18,804 bases of DNA from assembly GCA_035502095.1 (NCBI GenBank), contig DATJUX010000031.1:1-18804 (forward strand), in the 5' to 3' direction. Made by a program: the position numbers and the translations under genes. The stretch is from Burkholderiaceae bacterium. GTDB lineage: Bacteria > Pseudomonadota > Gammaproteobacteria > Burkholderiales > Burkholderiaceae_F. Every line of letters begins with the position of its first letter. Position 1 is the stretch's first letter. A model generated the notes under the pieces. That model had not been told where the DNA came from and ran no database searches. It was given only the letters and a program-made list of their open reading frames with translations. Of the stretch, positions 2,972-12,787 are shown one piece after another.

Positions 2972-3901
2972 TCAGATGAAATGCGGCGCGACGATGCGCC
3001 GCTCGCCGATCAGGAACGCATCCGCGACGAGTTGAAACGGCCGCCAGTCCACTTCCGACCTGGCCTCGGCGCAGAGCGCGGCGAAGCGCGCATACAAGCG
3101 TGGATATTCGCCCTCGAGGCCGCCGGCGGCCGACACGGCCCTGCCGTCGAGTTCGAGCGTCGCGCCGCCCTGCGAGAGTTTCAGCCGGCCGGAGGTGGTG
3201 ATGAGCTCGATGTCCCAACTCTGTTCGCCCTTCTGGCGGAAATCGAACTCGGCATCGACGGCGACGCCGGCTTCGCCACGCAGACGCAGGCTCGCCGCGA
3301 TCGGTGCCTGCTGGTTCTCCGGGAACTGCAGGACCGCGGTCTCGACACAGACCTCGTCCGCGAGCACTTCGGTGAGGACCGAGAGCGCGTTGATGCCGGG
3401 ATCGAACACGCCGAAACCGCCCGGCTCCCAGATCCACTGCTGCCCGGGATGCCAGTGATGCACGTCTTCCTTCCAGACGATCCGCCCGCCCGTGAGCGTG
3501 CGCCCGCGCAGCCACTCGCGCGCGGCGTCCACGCTCGCTGCGAAACGCGAGTGCCAGGTCTGGAACAGCGTGCGGCGGTGGTGCGCCGCCTCGTCGGCAA
3601 GCAGCGCGATCTGCCGCGTCGTCGCGGCGGGCGGCTTCTCGAGCATGACGTGCCGGCCCGCCCGCAACGCGGTGCGCACGGCGGCGAAGTGCGCCTGCGG
3701 CGGCGTGCAGATGGAGACGCAATCGAGTTGCGGCAGTCCCGCCAGCATCGCCTCGAGATCGGGAAAATTCGCCACCCCGTCGACCCTGGCGTTGCGGCTC
3801 GCGCAGGCGACGAGTTCGAATTGCCGGCTGGCCCTCAACGCCGGAATGTGTTGGTCGCGCGCAATCTTGCCAATCCCGACCAGGCCAAGTTTCAACGGCA
3901 C
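2972..3901 (-). CDS. Gfo/Idh/MocA-family NAD(P)-dependent oxidoreductase, similar to D-galactose or L-arabinose 1-dehydrogenase (309 aa, GTG start).
   Basis: N-terminal Rossmann motif LKLGLVGIGKIARDQHIPAL, then EKPPA and the downstream fold pattern typical of Gfo/Idh/MocA sugar dehydrogenases. The start codon is GTG at 3899-3901, with GGGGGAA (SD) 6 nt upstream. Stop is TGA at 2972-2974. Confidence 0.75.
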   Translation of the reverse strand: MPLKLGLVGIGKIARDQHIPALRASRQFELVACASRNARVDGVANFPDLEAMLAGLPQLDCVSICTPPQAHFAAVRTALRAGRHVMLEKPPAATTRQIALLADEAAHHRRTLFQTWHSRFAASVDAAREWLRGRTLTGGRIVWKEDVHHWHPGQQWIWEPGGFGVFDPGINALSVLTEVLADEVCVETAVLQFPENQQAPIAASLRLRGEAGVAVDAEFDFRQKGEQSWDIELITTSGRLKLSQGGATLELDGRAVSAAGGLEGEYPRLYARFAALCAEARSEVDWRPFQLVADAFLIGERRIVAPHFI

Positions 3902-4075
3902 GCCGATTCCCCCGATTGATTGCGCCCTCGCTCGAACCCGCCGGATTCACGCGCACCCGGCGCCCGGTTCGAGCCCTCCTCGCCCGCCGATCTTACCGAG
4001 GGGCCGCACGTCCCATCCGGGTTCGTCAAATCTCCGGCGCGACCAGCGCGTGCCGGTCGCGCCGCCGCCTGTCCG

Positions 4076-5323
4076 CTACGGATACGGCTGGAAGGCGAAG
4101 TACGGGCCGTTGCCCGCCGGCGTCGTGCTTTGCTCGAACGCGGTGAAAACGCTGTTGCCGAAGAAGGACGGCACGCCGAAGTCGAACGCATTGGTCAGCG
4201 TCGTCGCGGTCGGCCCGCCGAGATTGCTGAACGCGTTCAACGTGGAGGCGTTGGCCTGCGTGAGCAGGAACTGCGCGTTGGCGAGGGTCAGCGACGCGGT
4301 GGCGGTCGCGCCGTTGCTGCCGGTCAGGGCAACGCTGATCGGAGTGGCCGAGAGCGATGCCGCCGTGCCGGGACAGTAGAGGGAAGACAGCGTCGACGCC
4401 GGGCAGGTCGGGATGCTCGAGTCATCGAAATACAGCGCTGCCGAGCCGCTGTCGAAGAAGCTGTTGGCATACGTGTTGCCGTTGTAGACGGCCGTGAACG
4501 AACCGGCGCCGGCGCCGGACGCCGGCACGCCGATCGCCGCCGTGCTCAGCATGTTGTTGGTCTGGGTGCCGATGCCGAACAGCATTGTGCCGTTCGCCGA
4601 GGTCGCGCCGGTGGCGGCGACAGCGGGCAGCTGCAGCACGACGCCGTTGTTGTCCTGCGCGAAGAACCCGGCCGGGTTGCTCGGCTGCAGCGCAAGCGAG
4701 ATCGCGGCTTCGGTGCAGGTGCCGCCGCTCGTGCAGGTATAGAAGTACGGGCTGATGTTGAGCGCGCAATAGGGTCCGCAGTCCTGCAGGAACGTGCCGA
4801 TGCCGAGGATGCCGTTCGCGCCGAGTGCGGTGAGGCCGTCTTCCGCCGTGCCTTGCGACGCGCAGGTCGCGGGTATCGCCGGCCCGACGCCGTTGTCCTG
4901 GATCAGCTGGATCGACATGGAGGGTGCAACTTCACCCGCGAGTTGTACGTCGGCACTGGCGAGCGGTCCCCACACGAATCCATCGGCGAAGGTCGCGCAT
5001 TCGCTGTAGTTGCCGCCGCTGCCGGCGACGGCGGGCAGCGCAAGCGTCACCGCCGATGCGAGCAGGCGCAGGCCGGTGGAGCCGGTATCGACCTGCACGT
5101 CGGGGATGGTCTGGCACGCTCCGGTCCCGGGAACGCAGATCGTCACTGACGTCGTCATCATGTTCGCGAACTCGCCGGTGGGACCGCCGCTCACGATGAT
5201 GGGCTGCGTATTGGAGACCGGGCCCGTGGCGCCGTTCGACGCCGAGGTCGGTGCCCCGTTGCCGCCGCACGCGACGAGCAGCGCGACGAGCGACGCGAGC
5301 GCGGTGAACCGGAGCGCTCTCAT
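4076..5323 (-). CDS. Lipoprotein carrying the motif set of a bilobed pepsin-like (A1-type) aspartic protease (415 aa). It possibly corresponds to a DUF3443-type protein.
   Basis: Track ORF 4076..5539 trimmed to the ATG at 5321-5323 (MRALRFTALASLVALLVAC, lipobox LVAC with Cys19). GGGAG lies 9 nt upstream. Motifs were checked codon by codon: VQVDTGSTG (D79 at 5087-5089), GILGIGTF (res 171-178), FFDSGSAAL (D291 at 4451-4453) and the C-terminal FFGNSVFTAFE. These match FDTGSS, DGILGLAY, IVDTGTS and ILGDVFIRQYF of pepsin. There are many Cys residues. Confidence 0.65.
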   Translation of the reverse strand: MRALRFTALASLVALLVACGGNGAPTSASNGATGPVSNTQPIIVSGGPTGEFANMMTTSVTICVPGTGACQTIPDVQVDTGSTGLRLLASAVTLALPAVAGSGGNYSECATFADGFVWGPLASADVQLAGEVAPSMSIQLIQDNGVGPAIPATCASQGTAEDGLTALGANGILGIGTFLQDCGPYCALNISPYFYTCTSGGTCTEAAISLALQPSNPAGFFAQDNNGVVLQLPAVAATGATSANGTMLFGIGTQTNNMLSTAAIGVPASGAGAGSFTAVYNGNTYANSFFDSGSAALYFDDSSIPTCPASTLSSLYCPGTAASLSATPISVALTGSNGATATASLTLANAQFLLTQANASTLNAFSNLGGPTATTLTNAFDFGVPSFFGNSVFTAFEQSTTPAGNGPYFAFQPYP

Positions 5324-5787
5324 CGGATCGCTCCCAGCGACACGGTCGCGGGCACGAGTTCGGGGAGATACGCTCTGCCGGCGAAGGCGCGCATGCGACC
5401 GCCCGATTCGATCACGAGGTCCGGTGCATGCACCGCCAGCATGCGGTGGTCGGCATGCCGTTGCCTGCCTGCGGCGACGACACGCGGGAAGTAGTCGCCG
5501 AGAAGCTGACTCAGGTCGGGCTTGAAGGGTCCCCGCCACGTCACCGCGAACACCGCGCCCGACGGCGCCAGGAACTCGCGCACCACGGTGCCCGAGTTGA
5601 GCGTGAGCTCGTGCACCGCGTAGCCCGCGCGCGAGCTCGTGACGTGCTGAACCGCCTGCAGCTTGACGGCATCGTCCTGCAGGGTCGTGGCCGCACCACC
5701 CAGCGCAGCCGCGGCCGGCGAGGTCGCCAATCCGGCTGCCGCCAGCAGCGGCAGCCAGCGGACGAGGTAAGTCGACGACAGATTCAT
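5320..5787 (-). CDS. Small secreted protein (155 aa), possibly DUF2844-type, translationally coupled to the downstream pepsin-like lipoprotein.
   Basis: Track ORF 5320..5871 trimmed to the ATG at 5785-5787 (MNLSSTYLVRWLPLLAAAGLATSPAAAALGG, signal peptide with AxA site). AAAGGAA (SD) lies 3-4 nt upstream, with GGAG further up. The TGA stop at 5320-5322 overlaps the ATG at 5321-5323 of the next gene (ATGA). Confidence 0.6.
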   Translation of the reverse strand: MNLSSTYLVRWLPLLAAAGLATSPAAAALGGAATTLQDDAVKLQAVQHVTSSRAGYAVHELTLNSGTVVREFLAPSGAVFAVTWRGPFKPDLSQLLGDYFPRVVAAGRQRHADHRMLAVHAPDLVIESGGRMRAFAGRAYLPELVPATVSLGAIR

Positions 5788-5976
5788 TTCCTTTGCTCCG
5801 TGAATCGAGCGCGCCGTCCTGGCGCAGCAGTCCAATCCAATCGCATCGACGGCGAATTCGCCATCACGCATCGGCGCGCCGACGCTCAGATGACACCTGA
5901 ACCGAAGCGCTCGGCCGCTTGTCAGATTGTTGCCGGATCCTGACGCGAGCGCAGCGTGCGCGCAGGCACGCCGGAC

Positions 5977-6735
5977 TCAGTACAGCGACTCGACGTCGCT
6001 TGCCAGCCGGTAGCCGGCGCCGCGCTCGGTGACGATGAGCGTGGGGTTGGCGCGCGCGGGTTCGATCTTGTCGCGCAGCCGGCGCACCTGGACATCGATG
6101 GTGCGGTCGTAGACCTCGGCCTCGTGCAGGCGCGACATCGAAAGCAGCTGATCGCGCGTGAGCACGCGTTGCGGCGCGCGGCAGAACGCGGCGAGCAGGC
6201 TGAACTCACCATTGGAAAGCTCGACCAGCTGGCCCGTGGGCGACGTGAGCCGCCGCGTGCGCAGGTTCAGCTCCCAGCCGGAGAAGCGGAATGCGCGCCG
6301 CGCGCTGTCGCGCTCCGGGAGGGTGGCCTGCACGTGGTAGCGCCGCAGCACGGCGCGCACGCGTGCCAGCAGTTCGCGCGCGCTGAACGGCTTCGTCACG
6401 TAGTCGTCGGCGCCGAGTTCGAGTCCCATCACGCGGTCGGCCTCTTCGCTGCGGCCGGTGAGGAGCACGATCGGCACGGTGCCCCGCTCGCGCAACCTGC
6501 GCGCCAGCTGCATCCCGTCCTCGCCCGGCAGCTTCAAGTCGAGCAGCACGAGGTCGATCGCCTCGCGATCGAGCACTTCGAACATTTCGCGGCCCGACGC
6601 GCGTGCCGTCACGCGCATGTCGTTCTTGCCGAAATACTCCGCGACGAGCTCGCGGATGTCCGCGTCGTCGTCGATCACGAGGACATGCGGCAGTGTCGTG
6701 GCGATGCTGGGCGCGGCGGCGGGATCGGCGGGCAT
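5977..6735 (-). CDS. OmpR/PhoB-family two-component response regulator (252 aa). It is an orphan: no cognate kinase is adjacent.
   Basis: Receiver motifs VLVIDDDADIREL, LVLLDLKLPGEDG and TKPF, followed by a winged-helix DNA-binding output (LTxxEFxLLxxF...TIDVQVRRLRDKIE...RGAGYRL). The track ORF carries an implausible Arg/Ser-rich 186-aa extension. The first in-frame ATG before the receiver is at 6733-6735, with a weak SD. Confidence 0.85.
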   Translation of the reverse strand: MPADPAAAPSIATTLPHVLVIDDDADIRELVAEYFGKNDMRVTARASGREMFEVLDREAIDLVLLDLKLPGEDGMQLARRLRERGTVPIVLLTGRSEEADRVMGLELGADDYVTKPFSARELLARVRAVLRRYHVQATLPERDSARRAFRFSGWELNLRTRRLTSPTGQLVELSNGEFSLLAAFCRAPQRVLTRDQLLSMSRLHEAEVYDRTIDVQVRRLRDKIEPARANPTLIVTERGAGYRLASDVESLY

Positions 6736-6982: not shown

Positions 6983-7333
6983 CTACCGGCGCGGCGCCCA
7001 ATAACCCTGGCGCAGGTGCCAGCCCGCACCGCTATGCACCCAGACGCTGGGTTCCCAGTAGTAACCGGGCCGCGGTGCGCTCCAGTGACCCGCGACCCAG
7101 ACGTGCCTGCCGCCCACCCAGTTCCAGTAGCCGCCGATCCAGATGTAGCCCGGCACCGGCGCGACGCCCATGAACTCGGCCTGCGGCGGCGGCGGCGCCA
7201 TGCCGATGGGCTCGCCTGGCGGCGGCGGCGCGACCGGCACGACGCAGCCCGCCAGGCCCGCGAACAGCACGATCGAAAGCGCAGCCAAGGCACCGCGCAG
7301 GGATTGCTTGTTTCGTGTAGTCGACACGCTCAT
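6983..7333 (-). CDS. Small lipoprotein with a polyproline segment and W-x-x-G-x-W / YxW repeats (116 aa, WXXGXW-repeat type).
   Basis: Trimmed to the ATG at 7331-7333 (MSVSTTRNKQSLRGALAALSIVLFAGLAGC, lipobox LAGC), with AGAGGA (SD) 6 nt upstream. The mature part is PVAPPPPGEPIGMAPPPPQ followed by GYIWIGGYWNWVGGRHVWVAGHW ... GYYWEPSVWVHSGAGWHLRQGYW. Confidence 0.65.
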   Translation of the reverse strand: MSVSTTRNKQSLRGALAALSIVLFAGLAGCVVPVAPPPPGEPIGMAPPPPQAEFMGVAPVPGYIWIGGYWNWVGGRHVWVAGHWSAPRPGYYWEPSVWVHSGAGWHLRQGYWAPRR

Positions 7334-7533: not shown

Positions 7534-8118
7534 TCACGAGCACGTGACGAGCATCGTCATCGATCCGCCGGCGGCGATGGTCCCGCTTCCGTTCCTGACG
7601 ACGCAGGTCTGGCCCGCGGGTTGCACCGCGACCGTGACGTCGTAGGCGGTGCCCACGGGCAGCGTGCCGGGGAACGCGAACGCACCGTTGACATCGACCG
7701 GCAGCGGGGTCGTTCCGTTGGCAAGCGTGACGCTCGTGCCCGGCGCGAGGCCGGAGATCGTGCCGCCGAGCGACGACGTCGTGGTGCACGTCACCGCGAC
7801 GTTGTCGACCGGATCCCCTTGCGCATCGAGGGTGCCGCTGCCGTCGGCGACGGCGCATGTCTGGCCCGCGGGCTGCGTGAGCACCGTGATGCTGTATGTG
7901 CTGCCCCCGGGCACGACGGTCGGAAAGTGAAACGCGCCGTTTTCGGTCAGCGTCAGGTTGTCATCGCCATTGTTCTGCAGCGTCACGCTGGCACCCGGGT
8001 TCAATCCCGACAGTGCGCCGCCGACGCTGGTCAGGTTGTTGCCGGTACAGGCGGCGAGGGCAAGCGACAGCGAGACGGCGATGCCCCGCGCGCGGATCGA
8101 TACGCGCATGAGCGTCAT
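7534..8118 (-). CDS. Lipoprotein built from two tandem ~80-aa Cys-containing repeats (probable Ig-like beta-sandwich domains), 194 aa.
   Basis: Lipobox LALAAC. Repeat 1 is LSGLNPGASVTL...NGAFHFP...YSITVLTQPAGQTCAVADGSGT...VAVTC. Repeat 2 is ISGLAPGTSVTL...NGAFAFP...YDVTVAVQPAGQTCVVRNGSGT...MLVTC. It starts 12 nt after the htrA-like stop at 8131. The alternative start M4 (8107-8109) is possible. Confidence 0.6.
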   Translation of the reverse strand: MTLMRVSIRARGIAVSLSLALAACTGNNLTSVGGALSGLNPGASVTLQNNGDDNLTLTENGAFHFPTVVPGGSTYSITVLTQPAGQTCAVADGSGTLDAQGDPVDNVAVTCTTTSSLGGTISGLAPGTSVTLANGTTPLPVDVNGAFAFPGTLPVGTAYDVTVAVQPAGQTCVVRNGSGTIAAGGSMTMLVTCS

Positions 8119-10466: not shown

Positions 10467-12539
10467 TCAGCGCAGCAGGTCGGCGAGCGCGCGCGCGAGG
10501 TCGACGCGCTGCAATGGCTTGGCGAGCACGCGTGTCACGCCCACCGCGGCCGCGCGTGCTGCGAGCAAGGCGCCGCCGTAGCCGCTGACGAGAAGCACGG
10601 GCACGCTCGGCGCCACCGCGCGCAGCTGCTCGGTGAACTGCGTCCCGTTCAGGCGCGGCATCACTTCGTCGGTGATGACCGCGGCGAAACGCTCGGGCTG
10701 GGCGCGCACCGCGTGCAATGCCTCGACCGAATCGCTGAAGCCGATCGGCTGGTAGCCCAGTCCTTCGAGCATCTCCTGCGCGAGCGCGACCAGCGCGGGC
10801 TCGTCGTCGACCACCAGCAGCGCCTGTCCCGCACCGCGCGGGGCGAGTACCGGCGGCGGCGCGGGTGCGCCGAGCGCCGCGGCGGTCTCGGGAAAATAGA
10901 GCGTGAAGCGCGCGCCCTGCCCGGGTTTGCTCTGCACGTCGATCGCGCCGCCGAATTCGGCGATCACGCCGTGCACGACGGCGAGCCCGAGCCCGGTGCC
11001 CGACTGGTCGCCGCGCGTGGTGAAGAAAGGCTCGAACAACCGCTCCATCACCGCGGTGGAGATGCCCTTGCCCTGGTCCGAGATCGACAGCGCGAGGTAG
11101 TCCCCTGCCCCGAGGCGGCTGTGCGACAGCACGCGCGTTGCCGCCACGTGCGCGCGCGCCAGGCCGACGCTGACGGTGCCGCCTTCCGGCATCGCCTGCA
11201 TCGCGTTCGTGCAGAGGTTCATGATCGCCTCGAAGGCCTGGGTGGGATCGCCGCGCACGTTGCCACCAGCCGCATCGAGGGCGCGCTCGAGCACGATGCC
11301 GGGCCGCAGCGAACCGGAAAGCAGCGTCAGCACCTCGCTCACCACTGCTTCGAGCTCGAACACGGTCGACGTGCGCGCGCCGCCCCGGCTGAACGCGAGG
11401 ATCCGCTCGGACAGCGCCTTCCCGCGCAGCGCGGCCCGCATCACCTTGTCGAGCTGCCGCGCCTGGTCGCTGCCGGGCGGTGCGGAATCCTGCGCCAGTT
11501 CGCCGAAGCCGATGATCGACGCGAGCAGGTTGTTGAAGTCGTGCGCCACGCCGCCCGCCAGCGTCCCCAGCGATTCGAGCTTGCTCGCGCGCGCGCGTTG
11601 CGCGTGCAGCGCACGCTGCGCCTCCAGCCGGCGGCGGTCGGCGCGTTGCACGAGATGCACCGACGCAACCAGGATCGCGAGCAGGATCACCGTCCCTGCC
11701 GCGGCGACGCCGGCCGCCTGCTGCCAGGGCGCGAGCACCGCCGGCAGATCGCGCGTGAGCACGACGCTCAGGCCGTATCGCTGCAAGGCGTGGAAGCTCA
11801 CCAGCCGTTCGCTGCCGTCGTGGAACTTGCGCACCTCCATGCCGCGCATGACGGCCAGCCGTTGCGCCACGGTAGCTTCATCGAGCCGCGGGTTGGCCAC
11901 GATCGAGCCGGCGAGACGCACGCCGTCGTCGCGGAACACGGCCATCCGCGCGTCGGACGCGGGCGAAGCCGCCGAGAACGCGCCGAGCAGCGCCGGCGCC
12001 GGCAGCGCCGCGAGGATCCACCCATCGGTGGCACCTTGCGGGCCCGTGAAGCGATAGGCGAGCGCGACCACCGACTGTTTTGCGCCCGGTTCGATGAACG
12101 GGCGGCTCACAGCGAGCGTGCGGTCAGCCAGCCGGCCGAGCGCGGGCTGGAACGACTGCAGGTCGGGCGGCGGCGCCTCGGCCGATGCCGACAGCACGCG
12201 GCCGGTGTGGTCGACCAGCCAGAGCGTCTGCACGAGCGGCATCAGCTGGGCGCGGGTCTGCAGCGCCTCCGCCGCGTCGGCGCCGAGCAGCGTCGCCGGG
12301 TGTTCGCGCAGTTCTTCGCTGATCGCGCCGAGGCCCGCTTCGGCGCCTCTCAGCCCGCGGTCCAGGTCGTCGGTCAACGCGAGCGAAAGCAGTCCGAGTT
12401 CGCGCGCCTGCACGTCGACCGCGTCGCCGCGCAGATGCCAGAGCAGGACCGCAGCCGCGGCGGCCGCGGCCAGCGCGATCCCGAGCGCCGCCCACGTCAG
12501 GGGCGACACGTTCAGCAGTTTCGAGATCACGCCTTTCAT
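10467..12539 (-). CDS. Hybrid sensor histidine kinase (690 aa). It has two TM helices flanking a ~240-aa periplasmic sensor domain, a HisKA domain, a HATPase_c domain and a C-terminal receiver domain. There is no Hpt domain.
   Basis: Track ORF trimmed to the ATG at 12537-12539 (MKGVISKLLNVSPLTWAALGIALAAAAAAAVLLW). The second TM is AAGVAAAGTVILLAILVASVHLV. H-box is LAGGVAHDFNNLLASI, N-box is NLCTNAMQAM, G-boxes are DQGKGI and GTGLGLAVV. The receiver has LLVVDDEP, VITDEVMP and LAKP. Confidence 0.85.
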   Translation of the reverse strand: MKGVISKLLNVSPLTWAALGIALAAAAAAAVLLWHLRGDAVDVQARELGLLSLALTDDLDRGLRGAEAGLGAISEELREHPATLLGADAAEALQTRAQLMPLVQTLWLVDHTGRVLSASAEAPPPDLQSFQPALGRLADRTLAVSRPFIEPGAKQSVVALAYRFTGPQGATDGWILAALPAPALLGAFSAASPASDARMAVFRDDGVRLAGSIVANPRLDEATVAQRLAVMRGMEVRKFHDGSERLVSFHALQRYGLSVVLTRDLPAVLAPWQQAAGVAAAGTVILLAILVASVHLVQRADRRRLEAQRALHAQRARASKLESLGTLAGGVAHDFNNLLASIIGFGELAQDSAPPGSDQARQLDKVMRAALRGKALSERILAFSRGGARTSTVFELEAVVSEVLTLLSGSLRPGIVLERALDAAGGNVRGDPTQAFEAIMNLCTNAMQAMPEGGTVSVGLARAHVAATRVLSHSRLGAGDYLALSISDQGKGISTAVMERLFEPFFTTRGDQSGTGLGLAVVHGVIAEFGGAIDVQSKPGQGARFTLYFPETAAALGAPAPPPVLAPRGAGQALLVVDDEPALVALAQEMLEGLGYQPIGFSDSVEALHAVRAQPERFAAVITDEVMPRLNGTQFTEQLRAVAPSVPVLLVSGYGGALLAARAAAVGVTRVLAKPLQRVDLARALADLLR

Positions 12540-12787
12540 ACGCTGTGGTTGGCCGCGAAACAGCGCCGCCCGCTGCTCTCCCCGCGGCTCATCGCCCGGG
12601 CCGCGCCCATCGATGTGTCGACGCGCTGCACACTCCCCTGATCGACAGCCCGAGGTGCGCCTCCGCGGGTCGGTATTTCGACGCGGACATTCAATCGCCC
12701 TTCCCGCTCCAGCCAGTGGCCCGCCGAACGCCGCCGATCCTGCCAAGCCCCGTGGCGGGTTTCGGTGTCAGGCCGGAGCAGGGCTTG

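Follow-up and report, generated by a model that had tools for sequence, protein, structure and literature searches.

A conserved gene pair encoding a predicted periplasmic DUF2844 protein and a predicted pepsin-fold DUF3443 lipoprotein

The window analyzed here, a stretch of 18,804 nucleotides from a Burkholderiaceae bacterium, carries on its minus strand two overlapping genes, a small one for a secreted protein and, downstream of it, a larger one for a lipoprotein. The features of this locus are as follows:

5977-6735, minus strand: OmpR-type response-regulator gene (Pfam Response_reg and Trans_reg_C)
5788..5976, minus strand: intergenic region of 189 nt from the ORF map, presumed promoter region
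5320..5787, minus strand: DUF2844 gene, stop codon included, for a 155-residue secreted protein (ORF reading and Pfam)
5707..5787, minus strand: codons 1-27, predicted Sec (signal peptidase I) signal peptide (sequence reading and family alignment)
5331..5335, minus strand: GGGAG, a putative Shine-Dalgarno-like motif (direct reading)
5320..5323, minus strand: ATGA junction, with the DUF2844 stop codon TGA (5322-5320) over the DUF3443 start codon ATG (5323-5321)
4076..5323, minus strand: DUF3443 gene, stop codon included, for a 415-residue lipoprotein (ORF reading and Pfam)
5267..5278, minus strand: lipobox Leu16-Val17-Ala18-Cys19 (sequence reading)
5078..5089, minus strand: first catalytic motif, Asp79-Thr-Gly-Ser (codons read)
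4442..4453, minus strand: second catalytic motif, Asp291-Ser-Gly-Ser (codons read)

Direct reading of the minus strand places the DUF2844 start codon at 5787-5785, with a GGAG 8 nt upstream, and bears out the 4-nt overlap between the two genes described in the initial annotation. As the GGGAG motif precedes the DUF3443 ATG by 7 nt and falls within the DUF2844 gene, at its 3' end, the locus appears to have the layout of a coupled pair, that is, a stop/start overlap together with a ribosome-binding-site-like motif for the downstream gene inside the upstream one. RNA folding revealed nothing unusual at the junction (z = -0.06), and a lone ATGA overlap is frequent in bacterial operons and unremarkable by itself. 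The 189-nt region separates the response-regulator gene from the downstream pair. A simple promoter and terminator scan of positions 3800-6300 found no sigma-70-like promoter; its one terminator-like site, which falls within the DUF3443 gene but on the plus strand, was dismissed as no more than shuffled sequences give.

Pfam assigned the 155-residue protein to DUF2844 (PF11005; E 2e-40, 138.2 bits against a cut-off of 22.4), residues 25-152 aligning with profile positions 1-128 of 130, so that the family initially guessed for this protein proved to be the right one. The 415-residue protein was assigned to DUF3443 (PF11925; E 1.5e-113, 379.9 bits against a cut-off of 25; residues 36-411 on profile positions 3-367 of 367). 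The public gene calls P0001 and P0121 are 100% identical to the DUF2844 and DUF3443 proteins, respectively. Neither protein matched NCBIfam or the PADLOC anti-phage defence models, and a full-text literature search found no paper for DUF2844 or DUF3443.

As read from the sequence, the DUF2844 signal peptide consists of an n-region that includes Arg10, the hydrophobic core WLPLLAAAGLA and an A-x-A site (AAA/ALGG). Cleavage after A-x-A is predicted to leave the mature N-terminus Ala28-Leu29-Gly30; the run AAAA in the protein of the window leaves the exact cleaved bond ambiguous by one residue. In the family alignment, alanine occupies position -3 in 112 sequences and position -1 in 128, and the site is followed by Ala, Thr or Ser and then by Leu-Gly, both of which are kept in 133 of 133 ungapped sequences. 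An invariant X-Leu-Gly at the mature N-terminus is unusual for a secreted protein. The mature part carries GAVFAVTWRGPF and, as claimed at the outset, contains no cysteine. With n-, h- and c-regions, an A-x-A site and no lipobox cysteine, the protein has the features predicted for a Sec-exported, soluble periplasmic protein.

An AF2 model of DUF2844 (pLDDT 86.4 overall, about 90 or higher across residues 31-155) predicts two tandem units, each made of one helix and three to four antiparallel strands; the family conserves a WxGPxxPD loop, and Arg70 and Arg133 are invariant. Searching the PDB with this model, Foldseek returned no match below E 0.08, and the sequence matches to solved structures were designed repeat proteins (E at least 0.003), which we set aside as low-complexity noise. 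The fold neighbours, all with low scores, include BLIP/BLP, YpeB PepSY domains, YdcD, Rhs/T6SS immunity proteins and BamE/OsmE; only one DUF2844 repeat aligns to BLIP (57-59 residues), with a low score and no sequence relation. Since the fold is simple and recurrent, function cannot be transferred from BLIP-like, PepSY-like or 'double-wing' modules. No likeness in fold or sequence to the aspartic protease inhibitors PI-3/aspin and IA3 was found, and the sequence and Foldseek searches yielded no unrelated known family that fits the protein; a clear assignment to such a family was what the initial annotation had named as speaking against a partnership of the two proteins.

The DUF3443 protein begins MRALRFTALASLVALLVAC and follows the bacterial lipoprotein pattern (MRALR..LVALLVAC), from which lipidation is predicted. 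Among orthologues, the lipobox cysteine is kept in 140/142 and the glycine at +2 in 136/143. According to the established +2 rule for lipoprotein sorting in E. coli, this glycine argues against retention in the inner membrane, and we infer that the protein is probably located in the outer membrane. The family has, apart from the lipobox cysteine, ten conserved cysteines, which would form five presumed disulfides.

The AF2 model of DUF3443 (pLDDT 91.9, pTM 0.88) supports the initial description of the lipoprotein as pepsin-like: all 50 of the 50 matches listed by Foldseek against the PDB are family-A1 aspartic proteases, the best being rhizopuspepsin (1uh7; E 2.4e-10, probability 1.00), followed by BACE1 and endothiapepsin, and the listed A1 matches have TM scores of 0.42-0.60 at about 14% identity. 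Both catalytic motifs, DTGS and DSGS, are near-invariant. In ungapped orthologues, D79 is kept in 143/143, T80 in 142/143 and S82 in 142/143, while the second motif retains D291 in 143/144 and G293 in 144/144, so that each lobe appears to supply one catalytic aspartate within D-T/S-G, as in family A1. The family is further marked by two hydrophobic-hydrophobic-Gly motifs, the psi-loops (PMC2761423). DUF3443 has two candidate counterparts, recognised by sequence, namely I172-L173-G174 (glycine in 145/145) and F387-F/Y388-G389 (glycine in 144/145). In the model, residues 104-128 form a hairpin at the distance after D79 expected for the pepsin flap; this candidate flap has conserved Phe112, Asp114, Trp118 and Gly119 and no conserved tyrosine.

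At the level of sequence, membership in A1 had to be rejected. Pfam at E values up to 10 found nothing besides DUF3443 in the lipoprotein, and in particular no Asp domain (PF00026); a profile search of PDB sequences with DUF3443 found no A1 chain, its one hydrolase match being attributable to chance (E 0.41); and hhalign of DUF3443 against porcine pepsin, using an approximate pepsin sequence, gave a probability of 1.2%. Because homology to A1 was not detected in this way, we class DUF3443 as a predicted pepsin-fold protein rather than an A1 member, and retain the relation at the level of the fold.

The failure of these three sequence comparisons, together with a candidate flap in which no equivalent of Tyr75 is evident and Phe112 and Trp118 are conserved instead, is what could be expected if DUF3443 were an inactive pepsin-fold binding protein like the plant TAXI xylanase inhibitors, and the pair a non-proteolytic envelope complex. 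We give this little credence, since the aspartates of D-T/S-G-S are essentially invariant, the pattern expected if catalysis is under selection, and the hydrophobic-hydrophobic-Gly motifs are conserved too. The extreme acidity of the protein likewise matches that of acid proteases: the mature DUF3443 protein of the window has one arginine, no lysine and no histidine against 18 aspartates and glutamates, the pI is below 5 in 117 of 117 family members, and the net charge of the protease is negative in 122/123 pairs.

DUF3443 lacks a prosegment in cis. Only about 18 residues separate Cys19 from the strand that opens the fold (39-45), and these are rich in Gly, Ser and Thr, of low complexity and modelled with a pLDDT below 50. 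Given that both catalytic aspartates are conserved and that there is no prosegment, DUF3443 is predicted to be an active enzyme that is exported without a built-in brake.

The initial annotation had treated the two genes as a compact module and had named conservation of the pair in other genomes as a check, and on both counts the comparison was favourable. In genomes, scanned for DUF2844 loci with a 14-sequence alignment, DUF3443 adjoins DUF2844 at 79 of 80 loci, the sole exception lying at a contig end with 232 nt of DNA downstream. Conversely, with DUF3443 as the seed, every metagenome locus that allowed the test (73 of 73) has DUF2844 as the neighbour. Taxonomically, the loci range over Beta- and Gammaproteobacteria, Acidobacteriota and one Myxococcales MAG, and independent gene calls agree with the pairing. 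The pair has no conserved third companion: when the flanks were clustered de novo, every other family was confined to at most 16 loci. Flank clusters with higher counts were discarded as antisense shadow ORFs over the DUF3443 gene. An Ig-like lipoprotein of the window (7534-8118) was considered as a third component and rejected, its homologues, present at 20/80 loci, being fusions or lineage-specific neighbours.

DUF2844 lies directly upstream of DUF3443 in 134 of 145 complete pairs, across several phyla. In these 134 directly adjacent pairs, the lipobox cysteine codon follows the DUF2844 stop codon by a median of 65 nt and there is thus space for a signal peptide alone. A start codon is available at -4 in 47/134 of them and at -1 in 23/134 (together 70/134), the spacer is at most 30 nt in 49/134, and independent gene calls have the same 4-nt overlap at loci L161 and L162-L164. 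A tight or overlapping junction is a trait of the family. What goes beyond chance is the conservation of an ATGA-type junction and not the single overlap. The conserved same-strand order, small gene then large, and the short junction favour co-translation and balanced amounts of the two products.

Because their genes travel together in all the soil-bacterial genomes checked, DUF2844 and DUF3443 almost certainly work as a pair, in which DUF2844 most probably holds or shapes the protease, and, as no third gene is conserved, the function of DUF2844 must concern the protease itself. Operon neighbours are not required to interact physically, and the invariant N-terminal X-Leu-Gly could serve as a processing or recognition site; DUF2844 might therefore be a substrate of the protease, a precursor that the protease processes, or a periplasmic protein that shares the operon but is otherwise unrelated. 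We regard this as very improbable, as the compact domain of 127 residues, confidently folded in the model, makes an unlikely dedicated substrate, and near-obligate pairing across phyla, with no other conserved neighbour and a conserved junction, speaks against a casual association.

Other features bear indirectly on the role of DUF2844. Its mature part is basic, with a pI of 9.8 in the window, a family median of 9.1 and values above 8 in 82/120 members. The charges of basic DUF2844 and acidic DUF3443, as calculated from sequence, are complementary, as in pepsinogen; the net charges of partner and protease covary only weakly, short of significance (rho -0.17, p 0.06). The invariant N-terminus recalls inhibitors that insert their own N-terminus into the cleft of a protease, among them the serralysin inhibitors. 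Another is Ascaris PI-3, acting on pepsin (see PMC3916234). These grounds, namely the lack of a cis prosegment, a basic partner beside an acidic enzyme, the invariant N-terminus and fold neighbours that include inhibitors, are indirect and none is decisive, but they tip the balance toward DUF2844 binding the protease, inhibiting it or acting like a prosegment.

The same co-occurrence and junction data would fit equally well an obligate accessory subunit that is not an inhibitor, such as an activator or cofactor, an adaptor that recruits substrates, or a factor for lipoprotein sorting or surface exposure, and they do not discriminate inhibition from activation or targeting. The DUF2844 gene lies upstream, so that its product would be made first, the order expected of a protein that helps in assembly or targeting; the conserved WxGPxxPD loop, together with the invariant Arg133 and Arg70, points to a surface for specific binding; and among the low-probability Foldseek matches are the lipoprotein-binding folds of LolA, LolB and RseB type (probabilities of 0.08-0.25). 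However, the LolA-type matches fall short of significance (TM 0.16-0.27), the DUF3443 monomer is modelled completely and with confidence by itself, so that its fold appears to need no completion, and no membrane or outer-membrane component is conserved beside the pair. We rate an accessory subunit as rather unlikely. It is more improbable still that the main task of DUF2844 is to fold the five-disulfide protease, as a dedicated foldase needed once and not retained as an inhibitor, along the lines of lipase-specific foldases and of the chaperone role of protease propeptides. Such a role is hard to tell from a prosegment-like one, given that a prosegment commonly combines the two; for a foldase that acts catalytically, however, equimolar, coupled synthesis would be unnecessary.

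Our working proposal, held tentatively and somewhat short of an even chance, is that DUF2844 acts on DUF3443 in trans, in the periplasm and in stoichiometric amounts, as an inhibitor resembling a prosegment or as a partner in folding. One operon would yield two envelope proteins in roughly equal amounts, the first being soluble periplasmic DUF2844 and the second DUF3443, an outer-membrane-anchored, disulfide-rich and very acidic aspartic protease of pepsin fold. DUF2844 would bind the protease one-to-one and do in trans the job that the prosegment of eukaryotic pepsinogen does in cis, keeping the newly exported enzyme inactive, and possibly aiding its folding, until the enzyme arrives at its destination or the pH falls, whereupon DUF2844 would be released or degraded. 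Within this proposal we infer the binding, the inhibition or chaperoning, the pH control and the outer-membrane location. A more specific version, which would make DUF2844 the first case in bacteria of a protein devoted to regulating a pepsin-fold protease, a clamp on an outer-membrane acid protease that is released at low pH, seems to us possible but doubtful; here the invariant N-terminal X-Leu-Gly, the invariant arginine or both would be placed in the catalytic cleft.

Like pepsinogen-type zymogens, the A1 enzymes with a basic N-terminal prosegment, the DUF3443 system combines a predicted bilobal pepsin fold, one D-T/S-G-S per lobe and candidate hydrophobic-hydrophobic-Gly motifs with a very acidic enzyme that has almost no basic residues and a basic polypeptide that is made alongside it. 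In view of this likeness, a pH-sensitive electrostatic brake on DUF3443 is a plausible working model. In contrast to the prosegment of pepsinogen, a cis extension of about 45 residues, the candidate brake is a separate, secreted and folded domain of 127 residues, and DUF3443, unlike pepsinogen, comes from bacteria, is a predicted lipoprotein, has another set of five presumed disulfides and shows no sequence relation to A1.

Several operon-encoded protease inhibitors offer a further comparison. The serralysin inhibitors Inh/AprI, streptococcal Spi for SpeB and the staphostatins are small proteins co-transcribed with one protease, and are thought to protect the producer from its premature activity; AprI/Inh is periplasmic and places its N-terminus in the active-site cleft, and Spi resembles a propeptide acting in trans. 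However, these inhibitors act on metallo- or cysteine proteases, have unrelated folds and are usually encoded downstream of the protease, and sequence and Foldseek searches detected no homology of DUF2844 to any of them. We know of no such operon-encoded inhibitor for an aspartic protease in bacteria. Ascaris PI-3 and the nematode aspins resemble DUF2844 in their size of about 150 residues and in having two alpha+beta domains, in each of which a helix lies on an antiparallel sheet. In PI-3, it is the N-terminal residues that are implicated in pepsin inhibition (PMC3916234, which cites the PI-3-pepsin crystal structure), and the invariant mature N-terminus of DUF2844 is a comparable trait.

The bacterial pepsin homologues described so far, from seven species, have neither signal peptide nor prosegment and are cytoplasmic; of the three disulphide bridges of eukaryotic A1 enzymes they keep the first at most, their sequences identify them as A1 members, and no partner gene is reported for them (PMC2761423, PMC4814920). 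Shewasins A and D and the set of Rawlings & Bateman 2009 share with DUF3443 a bacterial origin, a two-aspartate site of pepsin type and the lack of a prosegment (PMC2761423, PMC4814920). In contrast to that set, DUF3443 is predicted to be exported and lipidated, has ten conserved cysteines, is widespread in soil lineages and is always paired with DUF2844.

The window and hundreds of related loci thus appear to encode an exported, lipid-anchored, disulfide-rich and extremely acidic pepsin-fold protein with conserved catalytic aspartates, as against the published cytoplasmic homologues. If DUF2844 is indeed a regulator in trans, exported pepsin-fold enzymes would occur widely among bacteria, at odds with published work, which portrays a few cytoplasmic homologues. 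The pair would then answer how a bacterial pepsin-type enzyme without a zymogen form is controlled, and a new class of proteins that inhibit or chaperone aspartic proteases would be added. Both proteins are small and should express readily, which makes the hypothesis directly testable. If DUF2844 is such a clamp released at low pH, soil bacteria of several phyla would moreover have an acid-switched surface protease. Since the host lineages, Acidobacteriota, Paraburkholderia and Steroidobacteraceae, are dominant in soils and peat, the pair could matter for protein turnover and nitrogen acquisition in these environments.

Direct reading of the minus strand showed that the small gene runs from an ATG at 5787 to a TGA at 5322–5320 (155 aa) and the large gene from an ATG at 5323–5321 to 4076 (415 aa), the start codon of the second overlapping the stop codon of the first by 4 nt (ATGA), as the initial annotation had claimed. 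GGAG lies 8 nt 5′ of the first ATG, and a GGGAG motif (5335–5331, within the small gene) lies 7 nt 5′ of the second. Both gene models agree in length and sequence (100% identity) with public gene calls: P0001, labelled 'MAG TPA: DUF2844 domain-containing protein [Burkholderiaceae bacterium]', and P0121, respectively. RNA folding revealed no unusual structure at the junction, and a simple scan detected neither a promoter-like site in 5788–5976 nor a terminator-like site on the gene strand.

The small protein belongs to Pfam family DUF2844 (PF11005; E 2e-40, 138 bits versus a cut-off of 22.4), the type that had been guessed for it, and the large protein to DUF3443 (PF11925; E 1.5e-113). Relaxing the Pfam threshold to E 10 brought up no further family for the two proteins, NCBIfam and PADLOC had no matching entry, and a literature search found no papers naming DUF2844 or DUF3443. 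Both have long been listed in Pfam as DUFs, and the pepsin fold could be recognised from predicted structures.

The main test put forward initially, conservation of the pair in related genomes, gave a positive answer in both directions. Scanned against one genome per species, a DUF2844 alignment yielded 80 loci, 79 of which contain a DUF3443 homologue; the lone exception (L027) has merely 232 nt of DNA downstream. Scanning metagenomes with a DUF3443 alignment yielded 80 loci, and in 73 of these DUF2844 adjoins DUF3443 on the same strand (72 upstream, 1 downstream). In each of the other seven the contig ends less than 90 nt upstream; the pair is therefore present in 73/73 testable metagenome loci. 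Four further contigs, with independent gene calls and precomputed Pfam labels, likewise have DUF3443 directly behind DUF2844, the two genes overlapping by 4 nt. The DUF2844-seeded loci come from Burkholderiales (Caenimonas, Janthinobacterium, Trinickia and many Paraburkholderia), Sideroxydans, a Neisseriaceae isolate, numerous Steroidobacteraceae along with further Gammaproteobacteria, Acidobacteriota (including many Terriglobales) and a single Myxococcales MAG. Peat, palsa, fen or soil is the source of many of these loci.

The small gene is directly upstream in 134 of 145 complete pairs. In these, the distance from its stop codon to the lipobox cysteine codon of DUF3443 has a median of 65 nt (5th–95th percentile 53–107 nt), leaving space for a signal peptide only. 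Among these adjacent pairs, 47 offer a start codon at −4, 23 at −1 and 49 within 30 nt. The tight junction read in the window recurs, 70/134 having a start at −4 or −1. The few exceptions include two Sideroxydans loci (L022, L025) and the metagenome locus L081, which have the genes in reversed order. In L003 the two genes are roughly 3 kb apart, and the DUF3443 protease of L080 carries a fused N-terminal domain. In three Acidobacteriota loci (L050, L061, L071), the one DUF2844 gene lies between two DUF3443 paralogues, and its product may serve both proteases. Two loci (L042:6405–7629 and L058:6430–6953) have a DUF3443 homologue split over several reading frames beside an apparently intact DUF2844 gene; these homologues could be pseudogenes, or their frames could be broken by errors in long-read MAGs.

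When all flanking ORFs were clustered de novo, no third family reached more than 16/80 loci; the module thus comprises two genes, as had been suggested. We consider it improbable that DUF2844 is a substrate, a precursor or an unrelated operon mate of DUF3443. The DUF2844 family is sizeable, with 2,358 clusters (50% identity, E ≤1e-3); the best 150 are all single-domain proteins of 122–288 aa with the domain C-terminal, none of them fused to DUF3443.

The flank clusters with higher counts (75, 60 and 38 loci) were shadow ORFs antisense to the high-GC DUF3443 gene. Such ORFs also lie antisense to 4076–5323 in the window, for example a 409-aa ORF at 3920–5149 (plus strand); we rejected them as genes, since they arise from GC-rich codon usage.

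The genes surrounding the pair in the window are as follows.

5977–6735, minus strand: OmpR-type response regulator, directly upstream of the pair
6983–7333, minus strand: WXXGXW-repeat lipoprotein (PF12779, E 7e-7), 116 aa, lipobox LAGC, proline-rich linker
7534–8118, minus strand: Ig-like-repeat lipoprotein, 194 aa, two Ig-like repeats
8131–~9600, minus strand: DegP/HtrA-type protease with two PDZ domains, upstream of the pair
10467–12746, minus strand: hybrid histidine kinase, upstream of the pair
Plus strand: AcrB-type pump
Downstream of the pair: GFO/IDH/MocA oxidoreductase and SPFH protein

The regulator, DegP/HtrA protease and kinase constitute an envelope-stress-like neighbourhood in this genome. 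This setting is not conserved around the pair in other loci; a response-regulator homologue occurs in 6/80. The Ig-like lipoprotein (7534–8118) has a weak CarboxypepD_reg match below Pfam's threshold. Its Ig-like domain is fused to the DUF3443 N-terminus in L080:6474–8450, L025:4292–5833 and L022:4346–5848, and is also the N-terminal part of lactonase beta-propeller proteins whose genes adjoin the pair in divergent orientation in about 16 Steroidobacteraceae/Gammaproteobacteria loci.

The DUF3443 protein begins with a lipoprotein signal, MRALRFTALASLVALLVAC, having the lipobox LVAC and glycine at +2. Under the E. coli +2 rule, this glycine argues against retention in the inner membrane, and the presumably lipidated protein is probably anchored in the outer membrane. 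Its AlphaFold2 model (42-sequence alignment) has a pLDDT of 91.9 and a pTM of 0.88, and all 50 among the PDB matches listed by Foldseek are family-A1 aspartic proteases (probability 1.00, TM 0.42–0.60, identity ~14%), the best being rhizopuspepsin 1uh7 (E 2.4e-10) and others including Candida Sapp2, BACE1, endothiapepsin and penicillopepsin. Conservation was assessed in two sets, 145 orthologues taken from the scanned loci and 120 homologues from databases. Asp79 (VDTGS) occurs in all ungapped sequences (143/143 and 117/117, respectively), and Asp291 (DSGS) in 143/144 and 119/120; the glycine of I-L-G (172–174) is invariant in both sets, and that of F-F/Y-G (387–389) is found in 144/145 and 118/119. 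For active A1 peptidases, Rawlings and Bateman list one Asp per lobe and two hydrophobic-hydrophobic-Gly motifs (PMC2761423); DUF3443 has the Asp pair, and its I-L-G and F-F/Y-G are candidate counterparts of the two Gly motifs. The flap tyrosine has no evident counterpart; the residues conserved instead are Phe112 and Trp118. That the pair forms a non-catalytic pepsin-fold complex, a reading that overlaps the other alternatives, seems to us quite unlikely.

A DUF3443 profile search of PDB sequences returned no aspartic protease, and hhalign against porcine pepsin gave a probability of 1%, which argues against A1 membership by sequence. We therefore treat DUF3443, judging from its model, as a family of pepsin-fold proteases separate from A1 at the sequence level; the earlier description as pepsin-like stands for fold and active-site motifs and fails for sequence family. 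Only ~18 low-complexity residues (pLDDT <50) separate Cys19 from the first strand (39–45), leaving no prosegment. Ten cysteines are conserved besides that of the lipobox. The mature window protein has a single basic residue among 397 aa (1 Arg, 0 Lys, 0 His versus 12 Asp and 6 Glu), and pI is below 5 in 117/117 homologues tested.

The DUF2844 protein has a Sec signal peptide, as read from its sequence (Arg10, hydrophobic core WLPLLAAAGLA, Ala-rich c-region), and its mature part, as initially described, lacks cysteine and contains the core motif GAVFAVTWRGPF. Its AlphaFold2 model (pLDDT 86, and at least ~90 from residue 31) consists of two tandem units, helix 33–42 with four antiparallel strands and helix 92–107 with three strands, and ends in a short C-terminal helix. 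Modules named beside this fold are DUF4309 YjgB, PepSY-type YpeB, BamE and OsmE. Foldseek gave no E below 0.08; the higher-probability matches were Bacteroides periplasmic proteins and one BLIP-like protein, and known aspartic-protease inhibitors were absent. DUF2844 fits neither an unrelated family, an assignment that would have counted against the proposed partnership, nor a known inhibitor family. A non-inhibitory accessory subunit, whether activator, adaptor or sorting factor, is a somewhat unlikely alternative.

In the family alignment, [A/T/S]-Leu-Gly comes after the A-x-A of the predicted signal-peptidase site (residues 27–30 of the window protein), with Leu and Gly in 133/133 ungapped sequences, so that mature residues 2–3 are invariant; such conservation is unusually strong for the start of a mature secreted protein. 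Invariance also extends to the SGTVVRE strand, the F-x-x-x-W-x-G-P-x-x-P-D loop, and G130, R133, G137 and A139. Mature DUF2844 is usually basic (window pI 9.8, family median 9.1, 82/120 above 8), with ~17 basic residues in 126, ~4 of them His.

Because each protein is Sec-exported separately, the two can meet only in the periplasm. There, a protease with an intact catalytic pair, an acid-protease build and no zymogen segment would encounter a basic, dedicated partner, putatively made in stoichiometric amounts and never found without it. It is on these properties that we tentatively favour DUF2844 as a candidate for the role that the prosegment plays in pepsinogen, here exercised in trans: it would inhibit the protease, help it to fold, or both, and may be let go at low pH. 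A pure foldase is a doubtful alternative. In its invariant mature N-terminus, DUF2844 is reminiscent of inhibitors that insert theirs into the protease cleft. The serralysin inhibitors are one such group. Another example is PI-3 with pepsin (discussed in PMC3916234). The prosegment-equivalent reading is weakened by the weak fold similarity of DUF2844 to inhibitor modules, by lineages in which it is not basic, by the lack of significant charge covariation between partner and protease (rho −0.17, p 0.06), and by the position of the helper gene upstream, not downstream.

Operons combining a protease with a dedicated inhibitor or foldase are a known kind of system, and to our knowledge none has been described for a bacterial aspartic protease; our literature search found none. 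The characterised bacterial pepsin homologues (the shewasins and the seven-species set) are described as confined to seven species, cytoplasmic and devoid of signal peptides and prosegments, and their authors noted that other regulation must make up for the missing prosegment (PMC2761423, PMC4814920). In contrast, DUF3443 carries signals for export and lipidation, is presumably rich in disulfides, is widespread in soil lineages and always has its partner, and thus lies outside this published picture of bacterial pepsin homologues.
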